Origin: Escherichia coli
GTDB taxonomy: Bacteria; Pseudomonadota; Gammaproteobacteria; Enterobacterales; Enterobacteriaceae
Direction: 5' to 3' (one strand)
NCBI RefSeq assembly: GCF_050920415.1
Contig: NZ_CP169309.1
DNA: 64,000 bases
Below, piece after piece: positions 4,398-24,114 of this stretch. Below the pieces are notes generated by a model. The model was not told the DNA's origin. It saw only the letters and a list, made by a program, of their open reading frames with translations, and did not search any database. The position numbers and the translations under genes were made by a program. Every line of letters starts with the position of its first letter. Within the stretch, counting starts at the first letter, position 1.

Positions 4398-5012
4398 TTA
4401 TCGAAACAGTGGTTTAACCGCGACAGGAATCAACAGTTGTGATTGCCATTGCGCCAGCGTTAAGCGAGCCAGTTCACCCAGCGCACGGTAGAAAGGGTGT
4501 TCTGCTTTTTCGATAAAAACGTCGAGAAAACGTGTTGACCACGGAAAAAGATGCCATGCCAGCAATTCTTCACATTCTGTTTGGCGACCATTCTCCGCCA
4601 ACCACGCAGCCATCAACAGCAGTGAACCAAAATGATCTTCCGGTTCGTTTTGCTTCATTTCGAACTGAATGCCTTTCTCGCGCATCCATTGACGAAGTGC
4701 CAATGTTGAATCGCCAAACAGCACAGATTCGCGATCCAGCCAGACCGACCCCCACGGCGGAGACGGCAGTGCCCACGGGCCGACAAACAAACGCTGCCAG
4801 GCCTGGGCGCGAGTCTCTTCACTCTGTGCCTGAAAAGCCGTCACCAGCGGCGCTAATGACGCTTCTGGTAGAGGCCACTGAGTTTCCCAGCCGTCACTGG
4901 TGAGTACCGCAACCAGAGGTGCGGCTTCCGCACTCTCTGGAGCGTAATAAAACAGCGCGCCCAACACGCGCGCCGCGACAGAAAAATTATCTTGCTGTGA
5001 AAAATGGGTCAT
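4398..5012 (-). CDS. dmsD: Tat proofreading chaperone DmsD
   Basis: 204 aa from Met4 of ORF 4398..5021; recognised DmsD/TorD-family sequence; sits downstream of ynfEFGH. Confidence 0.9.
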   Translation of the reverse strand: MTHFSQQDNFSVAARVLGALFYYAPESAEAAPLVAVLTSDGWETQWPLPEASLAPLVTAFQAQSEETRAQAWQRLFVGPWALPSPPWGSVWLDRESVLFGDSTLALRQWMREKGIQFEMKQNEPEDHFGSLLLMAAWLAENGRQTECEELLAWHLFPWSTRFLDVFIEKAEHPFYRALGELARLTLAQWQSQLLIPVAVKPLFR

Positions 5013-5054: not shown

Positions 5055-5909
5055 TTAACCTGCAATAGCCATTCCTACTGTCATGTGCAGGCCATAAAAG
5101 AGCACACGCCCGATCATCTCACCGCCAAGTATGAGGATTAGCCCCAGAATAAGTCCGGCAACGTGAGGTTCGCGGCGACGAATGAGCGGGCAAAGCCAGC
5201 ATCCAAGACCTGCGCATAACAATACCACACGCCAGACCTGTAAGGAGGCGTAATCTGGTACCAGTGCGCTGGCTTGTTGCACGGATGAGTGAATAGACGC
5301 CAGAGACAAACCTTGCAGCACAATCACCCCGGCACAAGCGATCAGCGCCAGAACGCTAATGATGGCAAATGGTGTGGTATTAAATGTAACGCGAGCTGCC
5401 CGCAGAATTGCGGCAGCAAGTATTGGACCGCTCAACAATACCGTCAGGAAGAAAGCTAGCGTAGTGTAACCGTTATGCCAGGTTGGCACGGTGTCGATTT
5501 GATACACGCAGGTCATCATCCAGACGAAAATGACGCCGAGCGCCATGCTGACAAGTAACCAGAGTTTCCCCAACGCTTGCGGCATTTTACCGATGACCGC
5601 CACCAGCCACCATAGTCCGCCAACGGCAAAAAATATGGAACCGGCAGCAATCTCGTTACTCAGACCAGAAGCTCCGATTCGATTCAGCGAGTTAAACGCT
5701 CGCAGTGGCGATCCCAGGTGCATGACAGAGGCAATAAACCCGATGCCCATCAACAGCCAGAGGAAAAACATGCCACGGACAATACGCTGACGGTCTGCGT
5801 CATTTTTGGCGGCGAACCAGCCAATTCCGCTAACAATCAGCGCGCCTACTACGCATTGACCCAATACGGTAAAGATAACCAGTGGCCATTCATGCCATCC
5901 ATTTCCCAT
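5055..5909 (-). CDS. ynfH: DMSO-reductase-type membrane anchor subunit (DmsC paralog)
   Basis: 284 aa starting at internal MGNGWHEWPL of ORF 5055..6524; hydrophobic multi-TM protein. Confidence 0.85.
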   Translation of the reverse strand: MGNGWHEWPLVIFTVLGQCVVGALIVSGIGWFAAKNDADRQRIVRGMFFLWLLMGIGFIASVMHLGSPLRAFNSLNRIGASGLSNEIAAGSIFFAVGGLWWLVAVIGKMPQALGKLWLLVSMALGVIFVWMMTCVYQIDTVPTWHNGYTTLAFFLTVLLSGPILAAAILRAARVTFNTTPFAIISVLALIACAGVIVLQGLSLASIHSSVQQASALVPDYASLQVWRVVLLCAGLGCWLCPLIRRREPHVAGLILGLILILGGEMIGRVLFYGLHMTVGMAIAG

Positions 5910-5910
5910 T

Positions 5911-6524
5911 TTACACTTCCTCCGGATTAGCCAGATAACCAGTGGTATCGCCGGTCGGCTGTTGGCGTTAGGTTTGATAACGATATTGGGTTTTGTGAAA
6001 TGCGCGCGCGGCAGTGGCGCGACGGCAGCCAGAGTGCCGTGCTTCTGGCGCAGCTCTTCAATTGGACCGAACTCAAGTGCACGCAGCGGGCAGGATTCGA
6101 CGCATATGGGTTGTTTCCCCTCGGCGACGCGCGAATAACAACCATCGCACTTCGTCATGTGCCCTTTTTCAGCATTGTACTGTGGTGCGCCGTACGGACA
6201 AGCCATGTGGCAGTAGCGGCAGCCGATACAAACATCTTCATCAACCACCACAAAGCCATCTTCACGCTTATGCATTGCGCCGCTGGGGCAGACTTTTGTA
6301 CATGCGGGGTCATCGCAATGGTTACAGGAGATGGAGAGATAATAAGCGAACACGTTCTGGTGCCAGACGCCATTATCTTCCTGCCAGTCGCCGCCAGCGT
6401 ATTCATAAATACGGCGGAAACTGACTTCCGGGCCAAGATCTTTAAAATCTTTGCACGCCAGTTCGCAGGTTTTACAGCCTGTACAGCGGCTGGAATCGAT
6501 AAAAAATCCATATTGTGTGGTCAT
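5911..6524 (-). CDS. ynfG: 4Fe-4S ferredoxin subunit (DmsB paralog) with apparent C-terminal frameshift that fuses the reading frame to ynfH
   Basis: Four CxxCxxCxxxCP clusters; ORF track reads through into ynfH (489-aa fusion ORF); the alternative frame from about 5950 encodes the expected tail ...DTTGYLANPEEV and stops at a TAA overlapping the ynfH ATG. Confidence 0.7.
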
Positions 6525-6534
6525 GGGCTACTCC

Positions 6535-8961
6535 TTAAACCTTTTCGATCTGGACGAGATTGCTGTGCGACGGGTTTCCCTTTGCCAGCGGTGAAGGGCG
6601 GTGAGAGGTCAGAATATTGATACTGCCGCCGTGATCGACCCGGTCACCAAACATATCCGCTTTAAGCCACGCACCTTGCCCGATGGCGGTAACGCCAGGC
6701 AGAATACGCGGAGTCACTTTTGCGGCAATCAGCATTTCTCCATTATTGTTAAATACCCGCACGGTATCGCCATGACGGATACCGCGTGCCTGAGCATCAA
6801 TGGGGTTGATCCACACCTCTTGTGGGCAGGCCTGCTGTAACACATCAATATTGCCGTAGCTGGAGTGGGTACGCGCTTTGTAGTGGAAGCCCGTTAACTG
6901 CAGTGGATAGGTTTTCCGCAGGGGATCGTCCCAGCCATCAAAACCTGGGGTATACGCAGGAAGGGGATGAATAATTTCATCTTTTTTCAATTCCCAGGTA
7001 TCTGCAATCTTCGCCAGTCGTTCAGAATAAATTTCGATTTTCCCCGAAGGTGTTTTCAATGGGTTTGCCTGTGGATCTTCACGGAATGCGCGGAAAGCGA
7101 CGTAATGTTCTTCCGGGCATTTTTTCTTAAAGATCCCGGTCGTTTTCATCTCCTCGTAGTCCGGCATCTCAGGGTTACGTTCCTTCGTTTTCGCATGGAG
7201 ATATTTGATCCATTCATGCTGACTGCGACCTTCAGTAAAGGTTTGATAAACGTCTGGTCCTAAGCGTTTCGCGACTTCACTCAGCATCCAGTAGATGGGT
7301 TTGCGTTCAAATTTTGCTGAGGTTGCGGGTTGGGCGAGGATCACATAGCCCATATTCCCTGCAGATTCATGAGAGATAAGGTCTTCTTGCTCTGTTGGCA
7401 TCAGGTCGGGCAACAGGATATCGCAATACTTAGCCGAGGCCGTCATGAAGTGGTCAATGCCAACAATCATCTCGCACTTGCTGTCATCCTGAAGCACCTC
7501 ATGGGTGTGATTGATGTCGCCATGTTGATTGATCAATGTGTTACTGGCGTAGCACCATAAAAACTTGATGGGGACATCCAGTTTTTCTTTTCCACGAATA
7601 CCATCACGGGTCGCGGTCATTTCCGTACCGTGGTCGATGGCATCTGTCCATGTAAAGACGGAAATCTGCGTTTTAACAGGATTATCAAGCATCGGGAACC
7701 ATTCGACCCCCAGATCCCAGCTACCTTCGCGTACACCTGAGTTGCCGCCGTTTATGCCGACGTTACCGGTGAGAACGGAAAGCATGGCAATAGCGCGGGA
7801 CGTTTGCTCGCCGTTGGAGTGTCGTTGTGGCCCCCAACCCTGACAAATATAAGCAGGTTTTGCTGAACCGATCTCTCGTGCCAACTGGATAATTTTTTCT
7901 GCCGGGATGCTGGTGATTTTTGCTGCCCATTCCGGCGTTTTAGCTATGCCGTCAGGCCCTTCGCCCAGAATATAGGCTTTATAATGCGCGTTACGTGGTG
8001 CGTTGGCGGGCAGCGTTTTTTCATCGTAACCAACACAATATTTGTCGAGAAATGGCTGATCGACCATGTTTTCCGTAATCAGTACCCAGGCAATCGCACA
8101 GGCCAGTGCGCCATCGGTGCCAGGGCGAATGGGCAGCCATTCATCTTCACGCCCGGCAGCTGTGTCGTTATAACGTGGATCAATGACGATCATGCGTGCG
8201 TTTGAACGTTCGCGGGCTTGCTCGACGTAGTAAGTGACACCACCGCCGCTCATCCGGGTTTCTGCCGGGTTATTTCCGAACATAACGACCAGCTTCGTAT
8301 TGGCGATATCATCCGGGCTGTTGCCATCATTGGCACCGAACATATAACTCATTGCGGCACTGATCTGTGCGGTACTGTAGCTGCCATAGCGACTGAGAAA
8401 ACCACCACAAGAGTTCATCAGACGGTACGGGACGTTTGAGTTGGTGATGTTTCCGCCATCTACGCCTGTTCCATAGAGAACATGTACAGCCTCATTGCCG
8501 TAATCTTTTAGGATCCGCCGAAGATTATCACTGATGGTCTCCAGGGCTTCGTCCCAACTTATCCGTTCAAATTTACCTTCACCGCGCTTGCCGACGCGCT
8601 TCATGGGATATTTCAACCTATCAGGATGATTCATCCGTCGGCGGATAGAGCGCCCGCGTAAACAGGCGCGAACCTGATGATTACCGTAGACGTCGTCACC
8701 TGTCGTATCAGACTCCACCCAGTACACAGTGTCATCTTTCACATGCAAACGTAACAGACAGCGGCTCCCGCAGTTAACGGTGCAGGAACTCCAGACCGCT
8801 TTCTCTTCTACCGGAGCCTCTGCCGCTCGGACCATTTGGGAAAATGGCAGAGTGAAAGCACTGCTTGCCAGCGCGAGACTGCCAAGTGCGGAGGTTTTCA
8901 TCAGACTTCTACGGCTGATTTCAGCCTTCATGAGCGCCTCTGTGGTATGGATTTTCATCAT
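6535..8961 (-). CDS. ynfF: Tat-exported molybdopterin oxidoreductase catalytic subunit (DmsA paralog)
   Basis: 808-aa ORF; twin-arginine signal (SRRSLMKTSALGSLALA); N-terminal Cys cluster; Mo-bisPGD domain. Confidence 0.95.
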   Translation of the reverse strand: MMKIHTTEALMKAEISRRSLMKTSALGSLALASSAFTLPFSQMVRAAEAPVEEKAVWSSCTVNCGSRCLLRLHVKDDTVYWVESDTTGDDVYGNHQVRACLRGRSIRRRMNHPDRLKYPMKRVGKRGEGKFERISWDEALETISDNLRRILKDYGNEAVHVLYGTGVDGGNITNSNVPYRLMNSCGGFLSRYGSYSTAQISAAMSYMFGANDGNSPDDIANTKLVVMFGNNPAETRMSGGGVTYYVEQARERSNARMIVIDPRYNDTAAGREDEWLPIRPGTDGALACAIAWVLITENMVDQPFLDKYCVGYDEKTLPANAPRNAHYKAYILGEGPDGIAKTPEWAAKITSIPAEKIIQLAREIGSAKPAYICQGWGPQRHSNGEQTSRAIAMLSVLTGNVGINGGNSGVREGSWDLGVEWFPMLDNPVKTQISVFTWTDAIDHGTEMTATRDGIRGKEKLDVPIKFLWCYASNTLINQHGDINHTHEVLQDDSKCEMIVGIDHFMTASAKYCDILLPDLMPTEQEDLISHESAGNMGYVILAQPATSAKFERKPIYWMLSEVAKRLGPDVYQTFTEGRSQHEWIKYLHAKTKERNPEMPDYEEMKTTGIFKKKCPEEHYVAFRAFREDPQANPLKTPSGKIEIYSERLAKIADTWELKKDEIIHPLPAYTPGFDGWDDPLRKTYPLQLTGFHYKARTHSSYGNIDVLQQACPQEVWINPIDAQARGIRHGDTVRVFNNNGEMLIAAKVTPRILPGVTAIGQGAWLKADMFGDRVDHGGSINILTSHRPSPLAKGNPSHSNLVQIEKV

Positions 8962-9018
8962 TACTCACTTATTGCTTTTCAAACAAAATGTCATGCCAGA
9001 ATTTATGGTTGTAGTGGG

Positions 9019-11206
9019 TTATATTTTTTCGATCTCGACCAGATTAGTGTGCTGCGGGTTTCCCTTCGCCAGTGGTGAAGGGCGCAGAGTGGTTAGCGTA
9101 TTCACACAGCCGCCGTGGTCGATTTTATCGCCAGACATATTGGCCTCGTGCCAGGCTCCCTGGCCCATAGCGCTAACTCCAGGGAGAATGCGTGGTGTCA
9201 CTTTGGCTGGTAGCCGAACTTCGCCACGATGGTTAAACACCCGCACCATATCGCCGTTGGCAATCCCACGTTTCTGTGCATCTATAGGGTTGATCCACAC
9301 TTCCTGACGGCAGGCTGCCTTCAGGACATCAATGTTGCCGTAGGTCGAGTGAGTACGAGATTTGTAATGGAAACCAAACAGTTGTAGCGGGAAGGTACTA
9401 CGTTCAGGGGCGTCCCAGCCTTCGAAGGTTGAGGCATAAACCGGCAGTGGGCTTATTACTTCATCTTTTTCGAGTTCCCAGGTACGGGCAATTTCCGCCA
9501 GTTTGCTGGAATAAATTTCGATCTTACCGGAAGGCGTTTTAAGTGGATTTGTCTCGGGGTCGTCACGAAATGCTTTGTAGGCGATAAAATGACCATTAGG
9601 ATCCTTACGCTTATAGATACCCATTTTTTTCAGTTCGTCGTAAGACGGTAATGCCGGATCTTTGGCAAGCATTTTGGCGTACAGATGTTGTAACCATTGT
9701 TCCTGAGTGCGGCCTTCAGTGAATTTTTGATAGACGTCAGGGCCAAGACGTTTCGCGACTTCACTTAGGATCCAGTAAATCGGTTTGCGTTCGAATTTTT
9801 CGCTGGTGACTGGCTGGAGGAAAATGAGATATCCCATGTTACCGGCGTAATCGTTAGGAATAATATCTTCCTGCTCAACGGTCATCAGGTCTGGCAGCAG
9901 AATGTCGGCATATTTTGCCGATGAGGTCATAAAGTTTTCGATGACCACAATCATTTCGCATTTCGATTCGTCCTGCAGAATTTCATGCGTTTTGTTAATG
10001 TCAGAATGCTGATTAACCAGGGTATTTCCCGCGTAGTTCCAGATGAACTTAATGGGCACATCCAGTTTATCTTTGCCGCGGACGCCGTCGCGGATTGCCG
10101 TCATTTGCGGGCCATGATCGATAGCATCCGTCCAGCTGAAGCAGGAGATTGATGTTTTGACCGGATTATCCAGCACCGGCAGGCGTTCTATGGTAATGGT
10201 ATAGGTGGATTCACGCGCGCCACTATTTCCGCCGCTGATGCCGACATTGCCCGTCAGAATAGGCAACATCGCAATAGCGCGTGCGGTCAGCTCACCGTTT
10301 GCCTGGCGTTGCGGTCCCCAACCCTGGCAGATATAAGCGGGTTTTGCTGTGCCGATTTCACGCGCCAGTTTGATGATACGGTCCACCGGGATACCGGTAA
10401 TTTGCGAAGCCCACTGCGGCGTTTTCGCTGTGTTATCATCACCTTCACCAAGAATATAGGCTTTATAGTGGCCATTTTTTGGTGCATCTGCGGGTAAGGT
10501 TTTTTCGTCATAACCGACGCAGTATTTATCGAGAAAAGGTTGATCAACGAGATTTTCGTTAATCAATGCCATCATTACTGCCGTAGGTGTAGGGCATGGC
10601 ACAGGAAATTTGCGCGGTGCTGTAGGAGCCATACTGGTTGAGTGAACCGCCGTAGCAGTTCATCAGGCGTTTGACCGCCGAGGCTGATGGCGAAGAGCGG
10701 GTCATATTGCCGCCAACGATCCCCGAAGAGTACTGAATATATACAGCCTCATTGCCATATTGTTCGACGGTTTTTTTCAGACTACTGGCGATAGTATCCA
10801 GGGCTTCATCCCAGCTAATCCGTTCGAATTTGCCTTCGCCGCGTTTGCCCACGCGTTTCATTGGGTAATTCAAGCGATCGGGATGATTAATACGCCGACG
10901 GATGGACCGACCGCGCAAACAGGCGCGTACTTGATGATTGCCATACTCGTCGCTGCCGGTGTTGTCAGTTTCCACCCAGGTGACTTCATTATCTTTAACA
11001 TGTAGACGAAGTGCACAGCGGCTACCACAGTTGACGGAACAGGCACCCCAGACCACTTTTTCGCTGGCCTGTTGTACCGCTGCCGCTGCACTGCGCAGGG
11101 TGAACGGTAAAGAAAAACCGCCTGCAGCCAGCGCCAGAGAACCTATCGCGGTAGATTTAACGAGTGTTCTGCGGCTGATGCCCACCATTTGTTCATTTTT
11201 GGACAT
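9019..11206 (-). pseudogene. ynfE: DmsA paralog ynfE disrupted by an internal deletion of about 240 bp with frameshift
   Basis: Two ORFs (10559..11206, 215 aa with Tat signal; 9019..10632, 537 aa) in different frames; alignment to adjacent paralog ynfF shows about 80 residues missing between ...YTYGSNDG and LINENLVDQPF; junction near 10560-10570. Confidence 0.8.
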
Positions 11207-11404
11207 AACTCACTCCCTGTTCTTTATCGTTATATAAAAGTTTATATATTGAATATTTAGCGCGCTAACAATAGAGGGAGTCTACCCATTTTGGGTTAAG
11301 AATTATTAATCCATATCAATAGAAGGGTATGAGTAATAAGGCGGGATTATGTTGTATGTTCATATCGCCGGACCTGTTGAATCCGGCGTTTAGTCAATAA
11401 TGTG

Positions 11405-11710
11405 TTACTGCGGTTCGGCAGGCGCGCCATCCTGAGTAGACTGCGCGGGGGCAGAGACGTTACCGCTGGTGGTGCGGGTGTAAAGAATTTTATGCGTATC
11501 ATTGGCGCAATGCCCGACGACCTGGGAATCAGGCTGATCAACCTGGTCATTGGGTACAATACTTAACGTGAAGCTGCTTTCGGGTACGCCATTATTGATA
11601 ATACGCTGTGATATATCGCTCTTTATGCGCTCACAGGATCCCGGCGCGGCGAGTACCGCGGGTGAGGTGAGTGCGAGCAGAAGCGCGGCACAGCAAGTTG
11701 AGAGTTTCAT
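11405..11710 (-). CDS. ynfD: small secreted protein (DUF1161 family)
   Basis: 101 aa from Met15 of ORF 11405..11752; signal peptide MKLSTCCAALLLALTSPAVLA. Confidence 0.85.
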   Translation of the reverse strand: MKLSTCCAALLLALTSPAVLAAPGSCERIKSDISQRIINNGVPESSFTLSIVPNDQVDQPDSQVVGHCANDTHKILYTRTTSGNVSAPAQSTQDGAPAEPQ

Positions 11711-15359: not shown

Positions 15360-16379
15360 ATGAAAAGCATTTTAATTGAAAAACCGAATCAACTGGCAAT
15401 TATCGAACGCGAAATACCCACCCCGTCAGCGGGTGAAGTTCGAGTAAAAGTGAAACTTGCCGGAATTTGTGGTTCAGATAGCCATATTTATCGTGGGCAT
15501 AATCCTTTTGCGAAATATCCGCGCGTCATTGGACATGAATTCTTTGGCGTCATTGATGCAGTGGGTGAAGGCGTGGAAAGCGACAGAGTCGGTGAACGCG
15601 TTGCTGTCGATCCGGTGGTCAGCTGTGGGCATTGCTATCCGTGCTCTATAGGTAAGCCGAACGTTTGTACGACACTGGCTGTATTAGGTGTGCACGCTGA
15701 CGGTGGTTTCAGTGAATATGCCGTGGTGCCGGCAAAAAATGCGTGGAAAATTCCTGAAGCAGTGGCCGATCAATATGCGGTGATGATCGAACCTTTTACC
15801 ATTGCGGCTAACGTTACCGGTCATGGTCAACCGACTGAAAATGATACCGTTCTGGTTTACGGTGCAGGTCCAATCGGCCTGACGATCGTTCAGGTATTAA
15901 AAGGCGTCTATAACGTTAAGAATGTGATTGTTGCCGATCGCATTGATGAACGACTGGAAAAAGCGAAAGAGAGCGGGGCAGACTGGGCGATTAATAACAG
16001 CCAGACACCGCTTGGCGAGATTTTCGCTGAAAAAGGCATAAAGCCGACATTAATTATCGATGCGGCTTGTCATCCTTCAATCCTGAAAGAAGCCGTAACG
16101 CTGGCTTCTCCAGCGGCACGTATTGTATTGATGGGCTTCTCCAGTGAACCGTCTGCAGTGATTCAGCAAGGAATTACCGGAAAAGAACTCTCTATTTTCT
16201 CTTCACGCTTAAATGCAAATAAATTCCCGGTCGTTATCGACTGGTTAAGTAAAGGGTTAATTAAACCAGAAAAACTAATTACCCATACGTTTGATTTCCA
16301 GCATGTTGCTGATGCCATTAGTTTATTTGAACAGGATCAAAAGCATTGCTGCAAAGTCTTACTCACTTTTTCTGAATAA
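15360..16379 (+). CDS. rspB: starvation-sensing protein RspB (zinc-dependent alcohol dehydrogenase family)
   Basis: 339 aa from Met9 of ORF 15336..16379; GHE...CGxC zinc motifs and Rossmann GAGPIG. Confidence 0.95.
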   Translation: MKSILIEKPNQLAIIEREIPTPSAGEVRVKVKLAGICGSDSHIYRGHNPFAKYPRVIGHEFFGVIDAVGEGVESDRVGERVAVDPVVSCGHCYPCSIGKPNVCTTLAVLGVHADGGFSEYAVVPAKNAWKIPEAVADQYAVMIEPFTIAANVTGHGQPTENDTVLVYGAGPIGLTIVQVLKGVYNVKNVIVADRIDERLEKAKESGADWAINNSQTPLGEIFAEKGIKPTLIIDAACHPSILKEAVTLASPAARIVLMGFSSEPSAVIQQGITGKELSIFSSRLNANKFPVVIDWLSKGLIKPEKLITHTFDFQHVADAISLFEQDQKHCCKVLLTFSE

Positions 16380-16566: not shown

Positions 16567-17847
16567 TTAATTTTTCACCACCTCGTTTTGGGGCATGGTT
16601 GGGGCAAACTCGCTTAGCTGTGTATTTAACAGGGCTACCTGTGCATTATTGTTTTCAGACATCCATTTCCCGTATACCTGAAACACCATTTGCGCATCTG
16701 CATGTCCCATCTGGTTTGCTATGAATGCCGGGTTGGCACCGGCTGTCAACGACCAGCAGGCATAAGTATGTCTCGACTGATATGATTTGCGGTGGCGGAG
16801 GCCAGCGCGCTTTATCGCTGCGTCCCACATCTGCCTTATTGAGTCAACGGTAAAATGGTCACCATAATTTTTTACTCTCGCTGACACTTCAGGTTGAAAA
16901 ACAAAGGTGCATTTTTGTTTTTCTGTTCTGCCGAACTCTCTGAGGTGAACGTCAATAATATGTTCTTTGCTCAGCCTCGTTAGTGTCATCTGACTCCTGA
17001 GAGCGTCGATTGCAGGCTTGATAAGGTGAATTACCCGATTGGTACCAGCCTGTGTTTTCGGTACCGTAAAACGATCTTTTGCTAAATTTCTCCTGATCAT
17101 CATTGTTCCATTTTTCAGATCTATGTCCTCCCACCCAAGCGCACACAGTTCACCAGGGCGAATGCCTGTATAAACAGAAACACACCATAAATTTTTGGCC
17201 TGCTGATTTCTGCAGGCGTCGATAAGACGGATAAATTCCTCCCGTGAAAGAGGATCAGGAATGGTTCTTGATTCCTTTAATGGCGAGATCCCCTTAAACG
17301 GATTATCTGCCAGGTAACCGTTATCAACACCAAACTGGAACACGGCGTTAAGATTTGTCATGTAATTATTTACAGTTACAGCCGATCTCCCTGGTTGTGT
17401 AACAATATAGTTACTTTTGGGGATCTGGTATCCAGTCAGTAGCTCTTTACGAACCTCCAGTAATTTTTCTTTATTAATCGATGAGGCAAGATTTTTTTCA
17501 CCGATTATGCTCAGGATATTTTTGATGACGGCACGGTATGTGTTGAGTGATGCTTTGGCGACTTCAGTTTCTTTCAGTGCCAGAAATTTTTCAGCCAGTT
17601 CTTTTATGGTTAAATCTTGTCGGGCCTCACCAAATTTTTCCAGATTGCGTGAGGAGGGAAACTGTTTTGCATAGTCGAAAACACCAGTTTTTATTGCGTA
17701 ACAAACAGAGGAGCGTAGTTCACCTGCAACGCGCCTGTTTTTTGCTGTGTCAGGAACCCCCAGATTTTCCCTGACTCTTACGCCTTTATAAACAAACCAG
17801 ATACGTAATTTCCCTCCATGGTTTTCCACGCCTGTCGGATATTTCAT
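16567..17847 (-). CDS. int: phage integrase (tyrosine recombinase)
   Basis: ORF 16567..17862; start taken at second ATG (MKYPTG) preceded by purine-rich RBS; C-terminal catalytic domain with conserved R...H-x-x-R...Y; adjacent to att junction. Confidence 0.9.
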   Translation of the reverse strand: MKYPTGVENHGGKLRIWFVYKGVRVRENLGVPDTAKNRRVAGELRSSVCYAIKTGVFDYAKQFPSSRNLEKFGEARQDLTIKELAEKFLALKETEVAKASLNTYRAVIKNILSIIGEKNLASSINKEKLLEVRKELLTGYQIPKSNYIVTQPGRSAVTVNNYMTNLNAVFQFGVDNGYLADNPFKGISPLKESRTIPDPLSREEFIRLIDACRNQQAKNLWCVSVYTGIRPGELCALGWEDIDLKNGTMMIRRNLAKDRFTVPKTQAGTNRVIHLIKPAIDALRSQMTLTRLSKEHIIDVHLREFGRTEKQKCTFVFQPEVSARVKNYGDHFTVDSIRQMWDAAIKRAGLRHRKSYQSRHTYACWSLTAGANPAFIANQMGHADAQMVFQVYGKWMSENNNAQVALLNTQLSEFAPTMPQNEVVKN

Positions 17848-23692: not shown

Positions 23693-24114
23693 AAATCAAG
23701 CATGAACACATCCGCATGGCTATGAATGCCTGGGCGCGTCCGGATGGTGAAAAAGTTCCGGCGGCCAAGATAACCAGGGCTTATTTCGAACTGGGAATGA
23801 CGTCCCCGGAACTGTACGACGACAGCCATCCAGAAGCCCTGGTTCGTAATACTCAGAAAATTTTCCGCTGGGTGGAGAAAGACACCACTGATGCGGTTGA
23901 AAAAATTCAGGCGTTGTTACCAGCAATCGAAAAAGCAATGCCACCTCTGCTGGTGGCCCGGATGCGCAGCCACAGTTCAGCCTATTTTCGGGAGTTGGTG
24001 GAGACGCGGGAACGACTGGTGAGAGACGCTGATGATTTTGTCGCAGTGGCAATCGCCGGTTTCAATCAGATGAATCGTGGTGGCCCGGCAGGAAATGCTG
24101 TGGTGATGCACTAA
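23689..24114 (+). CDS. YdaT-like (CII-position) regulatory protein
   Basis: 141-aa ORF start-overlapping the cro stop; position and size match the Cro(YdaS)/YdaT pairs of Rac-type prophages. Confidence 0.55.
   Translation: MKIKHEHIRMAMNAWARPDGEKVPAAKITRAYFELGMTSPELYDDSHPEALVRNTQKIFRWVEKDTTDAVEKIQALLPAIEKAMPPLLVARMRSHSSAYFRELVETRERLVRDADDFVAVAIAGFNQMNRGGPAGNAVVMH

Follow-up and report, generated by a model that had tools for sequence, protein, structure and literature searches.

The closest described counterparts of the locus studied here are those of Escherichia coli K-12 and Salmonella, in which ynfE encodes the catalytic Mo-bisPGD subunit of the YnfEFGH selenate/tellurate reductase. For Salmonella, one report assigns catalysis in the selenate reductase to YnfE and only a small contribution to YnfF (PMC5203670); the same report describes a growth test in which selenate reduction is scored as red selenium (PMC5203670). 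For E. coli, a second report treats YnfE and YnfF as isoenzymes and states that a ynfEF deletion mutant does not reduce selenate (PMC12724226), and ynfEF are also credited with tellurate reduction (Fujita et al., 2021, as cited in PMC12096835). Across 2377 E. coli genomes, both genes rank near the top of the metabolic genes by frequency of pseudogenization (PMC13322260). Pseudogenes of ynfE or ynfF in other E. coli and in Shigella share their outcome with the case described below, namely an inactivated catalytic subunit of the selenate reductase.

The window (the whole stretch of DNA analyzed, 64,000 nt) carries a ynfE ortholog on the minus strand at 9019..11206. It has the gene order ynfD-ynfE-ynfF-ynfG-ynfH-dmsD in common with K-12 and Salmonella, lies between ynfD and ynfF, and is most similar to ynfE rather than to ynfF or dmsA. 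Outside a single gap, DNA identity to annotated ynfE is 97–99%, and on either side of that gap the window copy is 99% identical to ynfE as annotated in other E. coli. Unlike the K-12/Salmonella gene, the window copy lacks nt 641–879 and is frameshifted, and the full 808-aa protein cannot be encoded. The preliminary description of this DNA had proposed an internal ynfE deletion of about 240 bp with a frameshift, based on the paralog ynfF, and had named nucleotide alignment to intact ynfE as a means of checking it. That alignment, by BLAST and exact-match extension against intact alleles (L002 first, then L002, L009, L010, and L017; each 2427 nt), bears the proposal out: the window gene is 2188 nt long, a single gap of precisely 239 bp accounts for the difference, and there are no further indels. 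Correspondingly, a 2299-nt query of the ynfE region covers 2538 nt, in two pieces, in essentially all other genomes when searched by BLAST against complete RefSeq E. coli.

The deletion removes codons 214–293 and, because 239 = 79 × 3 + 2, shifts the reading frame, with a TAA stop codon two codons past the junction. The minus-strand region 9019–11206 consequently appears in the list of open reading frames (ORFs) as two abutting ORFs in different frames (10559–11206 and 9019–10632), as originally described. Alignment of these ORFs to YnfF also agrees with the earlier count of about 80 missing residues: the first piece ends in ...GSNDG, where YnfF has ...GANDG, the second restarts at LINENLVDQPF, and approximately 80 YnfF residues in between are without a match. 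Exact-match extension from both sides with four intact alleles places the junction at 10566..10568, base 10567 being a single ambiguous (microhomology) nucleotide. On the plus strand the sequence runs ...TTAATCAAT up to the junction and GCCATCATT... after it; on the gene strand it reads ...AATGATGGCA before and TTGATTAAC... after. The 50-nt junction sequence is ATCAACGAGATTTTCGTTAATCAATGCCATCATTACTGCCGTAGGTGTAG, and both the junction string previously given, AATGATGGCATTGATT, and its coordinates were correct.

Among 5426 complete RefSeq E. coli genomes searched by BLAST, only that of strain MFDS1022581 (NZ_CP169399.1) has the 239-bp deletion; the match ranked after it is an intact ynfE with 99.0% identity. 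Of these genomes, 5318 contain at least some of ynfE and 5299 contain the segment deleted here, which leaves at most 19 that have the gene but not the segment. The number of carriers was bounded in this way, using the deleted segment and the full-length gene as queries, since a BLAST search with the 100-bp junction merges the half-matches of intact genomes. The gap could in principle be a sequencing or assembly artefact of a single genome, given one carrier in 5426 complete genomes and a NZ_CP169399.1 record in which several prophage genes are frameshifted besides. However, the identical 50-nt junction, with flanks 99.98–100% identical over 8.6–14.4 kb, is found in no fewer than eight independent assemblies of different accessions and sources: GCA_002531355.1, GCA_000194575.2, GCA_000190955.1, GCA_030295195.1 (AP025751.1), GCA_000194175.2, GCA_036681175.1, the Logan assembly of SRR31942419, and NZ_CP169399.1. 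The carriers thus include a separately assembled SRA run, and the window strain is itself distinct from the RefSeq record. With the same disabling junction reproduced in independent assemblies, an artefact is excluded for practical purposes, and we give it next to no credence.

Apart from two SNPs, the window is identical to the MFDS1022581 sequence over its first ~24.9 kb; past 24923, within a prophage, the two sequences part, and the window therefore comes from another strain of that clone. (The differences are at 16343, at 23843, and from 24923 onward; the window's base at 16343 is also found in other assemblies of the clone.) In NZ_CP169399.1, automated annotation (PGAP) of the identical sequence already designates both ynfE and ynfG as frameshifted pseudogenes. 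An exact-protein look-up of the 215-aa product encoded upstream of the junction returned 74 contigs, and truncated YnfE products of other E. coli and Shigella fall in the same 90% cluster as this product. One of the NCBI names attached to the 215-aa product derives from E. coli M863, which has been assigned to Escherichia clade I (PMC4182557); on the basis of that name and assignment, the whole clone with the deletion would belong to clade I. The carrier assembly accessions and the strain names that were searched had no match in a clade I paper and its supplements (PMC10100065). Look-ups of the exact YnfF, YnfD, and fusion proteins (see below) were used to seek a closer relative with intact ynfE: each contig encoding the YnfF or the fusion of the clone also has the deletion, and contigs sharing only YnfD, with ynfE intact, are already 1.0–1.7% divergent. 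The ancestral breakpoints can therefore be deduced only from those divergent alleles.

Other ynfE lesions exist among the complete genomes: 108 of the 5426 have no ynfE match and ~207 more have less than 80% of the gene. Unlike these, the 239-bp junction is specific to one clone, with no further carrier among complete RefSeq genomes at ≥99% identity. In H165 (NZ_CP058879.1), H166 (NZ_CP079772.1), and H167 (NZ_CP047571.1), independent and different lesions leave remnants covering only nt 1017–2427 or nt 1810–2427 of the gene; in the first two, the first 1016 nt are gone.

The window ynfE would yield at most two products, a 215-aa fragment with a Tat signal and a C-terminal fragment without a signal. 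The N-terminal ORF (minus strand, 10559..11206; ending ...GSNDGID*) retains the Tat signal SRRTLVK, the cysteine motif of the FS0 [4Fe-4S] cluster (C-x3-C-x3-C...C), and a serine aligned with the Mo ligand; its Pfam matches are Molybdop_Fe4S4 and the start of Molybdopterin. The C-terminal ORF (minus strand, 9019–10632; 537 aa in the ORF list, and 517, 518, or 537 aa depending on the gene caller) contains codons 294–808 and the stop codon at 9019..10566, lacks a signal peptide, and is read in another frame than the N-terminal ORF; comparison with the intact alleles revealed no second indel or stop codon in this remainder. Against the NCBIfam YnfE profile NF041885 (selenate_YnfE), which gives each fragment a higher score than the YnfF and DmsA models do, the N-terminal fragment matches positions 2–210 (424.7 bits) and the C-terminal fragment positions 291–805 of 805 (1157.7 bits), with positions 211–290 unmatched in both. 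Even taken together, the two fragments score below the curated cut-off of 1675 bits over ~805 positions, and neither constitutes a full-length YnfE.

The lost codons 214–293 map to the Pfam Molybdopterin domain, and a complete molybdopterin (PGD)-binding domain in one frame is thus lacking: the block itself is gone and the remainder lies in another frame. Conserved stretches within the lost block are VVMFGNNPAETR, IVIDPRYTDTA, and IPIRPGTDAAL. These belong to the Rossmann-like cofactor-binding core of Mo-bisPGD enzymes. To gauge the loss, and for that purpose only, we used DmsA and the periplasmic DMSO/TMAO reductases (DorA, 1EU1), which are paralogs and different enzymes from YnfE. The overall domain plan is alike, and the lost block aligns with chain residues ~167–247 of the Rhodobacter sphaeroides DMSO reductase 1EU1, with VVMFGNNPAETR opposite LMVFWAADPMKT, IVIDPRYTDTA opposite ICINPVRTETA, and RPGTDAAL opposite RPQTDVAL. 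The serine of GSYSTAQ, retained in the N-terminal fragment, aligns with the serine of DYSTA in 1EU1, counted along the chain as S147, which we take to be the Mo ligand of DorA. It therefore appears that an active Mo-bisPGD catalytic subunit is not obtainable from the fragments as one chain, or plausibly as two, and YnfE activity would be lost.

Two ATG codons (ATG ATG GCA TTG...) in the frame of the C-terminal fragment lie at window 10566–10572, just before the junction and a few nucleotides upstream of the stop codon of the N-terminal fragment (10559–10561, minus strand). Their presence explains why the second ORF is called as 517 or 518 aa, and translational re-initiation at this pair is conceivable. 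Re-initiation at this position, together with the length and otherwise undamaged state of both ORFs, could be taken to favor a split enzyme operating as two polypeptides. Against this, 80 residues of the conserved cofactor-binding core are missing outright rather than merely divided between the chains, and the C-terminal fragment has neither a Tat signal nor the FS0 domain. We know of no comparable split enzyme in the YnfE family, and we regard a functional pair of fragments as exceedingly improbable.

We infer, with high confidence, that ynfE in the window is a genuine and recent pseudogene, and that the lesion arose once and became fixed in a tight Escherichia clone that includes M863 (cryptic clade I). 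Under this reading, a single illegitimate deletion of 239 bp would have taken out codons 214–293 and shifted the frame, probably through end-joining, or through a template switch during replication, in either case with 1 nt of homology. A hairpin at the 3′ breakpoint may have aided the event. An 11-bp inverted repeat (TTGATTAACGA-AAATC-TCGTTGATCAA; minus strand, 10540..10566), native to ynfE and detected in a scan for terminator-like structures, begins exactly at this breakpoint; its ssDNA fold has a predicted energy of -7.3 kcal/mol (z -2.8), equalled by 2 of 200 shuffled sequences, and is predicted in the intact allele as well. Replication stalled at the hairpin, or a template switch there, would be a reasonable origin for the deletion, the coincidence of hairpin and breakpoint having been noticed post hoc. 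Folding of the intact segment as ssDNA did not convincingly bring the two breakpoints together, and gave only the local 3′ hairpin.

The preliminary description had instead pointed to the tandem paralogy of ynfE and ynfF, as an invitation to recombination or slippage, and to a microhomology-mediated deletion. The two genes are indeed adjacent, with products 67–69% identical; an imperfect GGCA/GGTA match is found at both breakpoints if one mismatch is allowed; and a GGCATTG/GGTATTG repeat, 11 nt apart, lies just upstream of the 3′ breakpoint. However, the junction has just 1 nt of perfect microhomology, which is seen at roughly 4 in 10 random junctions and is no more than chance would give, and there is no direct repeat of several nucleotides at the breakpoints. 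Furthermore, both breakpoints are within ynfE, the sequence on either side of the junction matches ynfE alleles at 99% identity, and nothing is missing from ynfF; there is accordingly neither a ynfE/ynfF chimera nor a conversion tract, and no sign of exchange. Neither of these proposals was upheld, and an origin through unequal exchange between ynfE and ynfF, gene conversion, microhomology slippage, or repeats inside ynfE is quite improbable. A path in two steps, in which a 228-bp in-frame deletion at GGCA came first and an 11-bp slippage between GGCATTG and GGTATTG second, would be less parsimonious than the single illegitimate deletion.

The lesion in ynfE is not the only one in the operon. 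The tandem paralog ynfF (minus strand, 6535..8958; ORF 6535–8961) encodes 807–808 aa, is annotated as intact, and scores 1771.7 bits against the NCBIfam YnfF model (cut-off 1650). Each half of the original contrast, an inactivated ynfE beside an intact ynfF, is thus correct, but its implication of a working operon was overstated, a 4-bp deletion in ynfG (minus strand, 5911..6524), the gene of the shared Fe-S subunit, having been missed. Alignment to intact ynfG shows the loss of CCGC from CAG-CCG-C-CCG-ACC at window ~5956–5959, 16 codons ahead of the stop codon (site sequence CAACAGCCGACC), and the frame after this deletion runs into ynfH without a stop. The resulting YnfG-YnfH fusion ORF (minus strand, 5055..6524; 489 aa by translation) comprises the four ferredoxin-type cysteine groups, a 14-aa frameshifted linker, and then the full YnfH. 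It matches positions 1–161 of 161 of the NCBIfam DmsB profile, with all four cysteine groups kept, and is called in other assemblies as a 489-aa gene with Pfam Fer4 and DmsC matches. Downstream, dmsD (minus strand, 4398..5012) is intact, as judged from the annotation of identical sequence. A promoter scan found no sigma-70-like site in 8800–11450.

All 24 contigs with the fusion that were read have the 215-aa YnfE fragment adjoining it. As the ynfG lesion always co-occurs with the ynfE lesion, the intact ynfF may not be a working backup; some YnfF-dependent activity may persist, since ynfF is intact and YnfG keeps all four of its Fe-S cysteine groups. We propose that a 4-bp slippage deletion would have fused ynfG to ynfH in the same clone, and that the ynfEFGH operon as a whole is decaying, rather than a single redundant paralog having been lost, while dmsD stays intact; we hold this jointly with the origin and fixation set out above, and with the same high confidence. 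The selenate/tellurate reductase phenotype of the clone would then be reduced or absent. The co-fixed lesions could alternatively amount to a remodelled enzyme, that is, a YnfF-only reductase with its Fe-S subunit fused to the eight-helix anchor as the 489-aa YnfG-YnfH protein, and with the YnfE fragment acting as a DmsD-binding decoy. This is very improbable; if true, a Tat-hitchhiking Fe-S subunit would be working while fused to a polytopic membrane anchor, a genuine puzzle for membrane-protein biogenesis.

The age of the loss was approached through lineage-specific changes, defined as positions at which five intact alleles share one base and the window has another. What remains of ynfE has five synonymous and no nonsynonymous changes of this kind, and no second lesion. 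With a neutral expectation of ~77% nonsynonymous changes, the observation of none in five has P ~0.001, and the signs of long neutral decay (extra stops or indels, dN/dS near 1) are lacking in ynfE. The other four genes likewise have no nonsynonymous lineage-specific changes, with synonymous counts of one in ynfF, three in ynfG, three in ynfH, and one in dmsD. The 5:0 ratio of synonymous to nonsynonymous changes implies that most of the branch was travelled with ynfE still under selection. Judged by these counts, the deletion is recent, which fits the near-identity of all its carriers.

The loss might itself have been selected, if removing YnfE and remodelling YnfGH were advantageous in the niche of the clone, for example by lessening competition for DmsD, the Tat system, the molybdenum cofactor, or YnfGH. 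Two independent lesions in one operon, fixed together, are compatible with this, as are the unusually frequent pseudogenization of ynfE and ynfF across E. coli (PMC13322260) and the ~2% of complete genomes without ynfE, with ~4% more having less than 80% of it. Nevertheless, recurrent loss is equally predicted for a dispensable gene under weak selection, the deleted segment is kept in 5299 of 5426 genomes, and the sample of carriers is near-clonal, such that fixation may merely reflect common descent. We therefore consider selection for the loss unlikely, albeit the least so of the alternatives weighed here. The favored explanation remains the recent, singly arisen pseudogene, and the case is one of ordinary gene decay, a known kind of event that is already annotated publicly.

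No new system or mechanism is revealed by the ynfE deletion, and its significance is mostly one of bookkeeping: it is one more case, and a dated one, of the loss of ynfE and ynfF to which E. coli is already reported to be prone. The ynfE junction and the ynfG 4-bp deletion together provide a clean PCR or k-mer marker for the M863-related Escherichia clone.

Beyond the operon, a lambdoid prophage is integrated directly after rspB (window ~16567–64000), and the window ends inside it. The prophage begins with its integrase (16567–17847), and excisionase, exonuclease, and dicB come next; similarity to NZ_CP169399.1 further indicates a zeta-toxin family gene, a TerB-family gene, and an IS21 element, after which head and tail genes follow up to gpJ. 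Relative to NZ_CP169399.1, the stretch at window positions ~24.9–26.2 kb is replaced, with 99.6% identity beyond, and the two prophages differ in length by ~1.3 kb.
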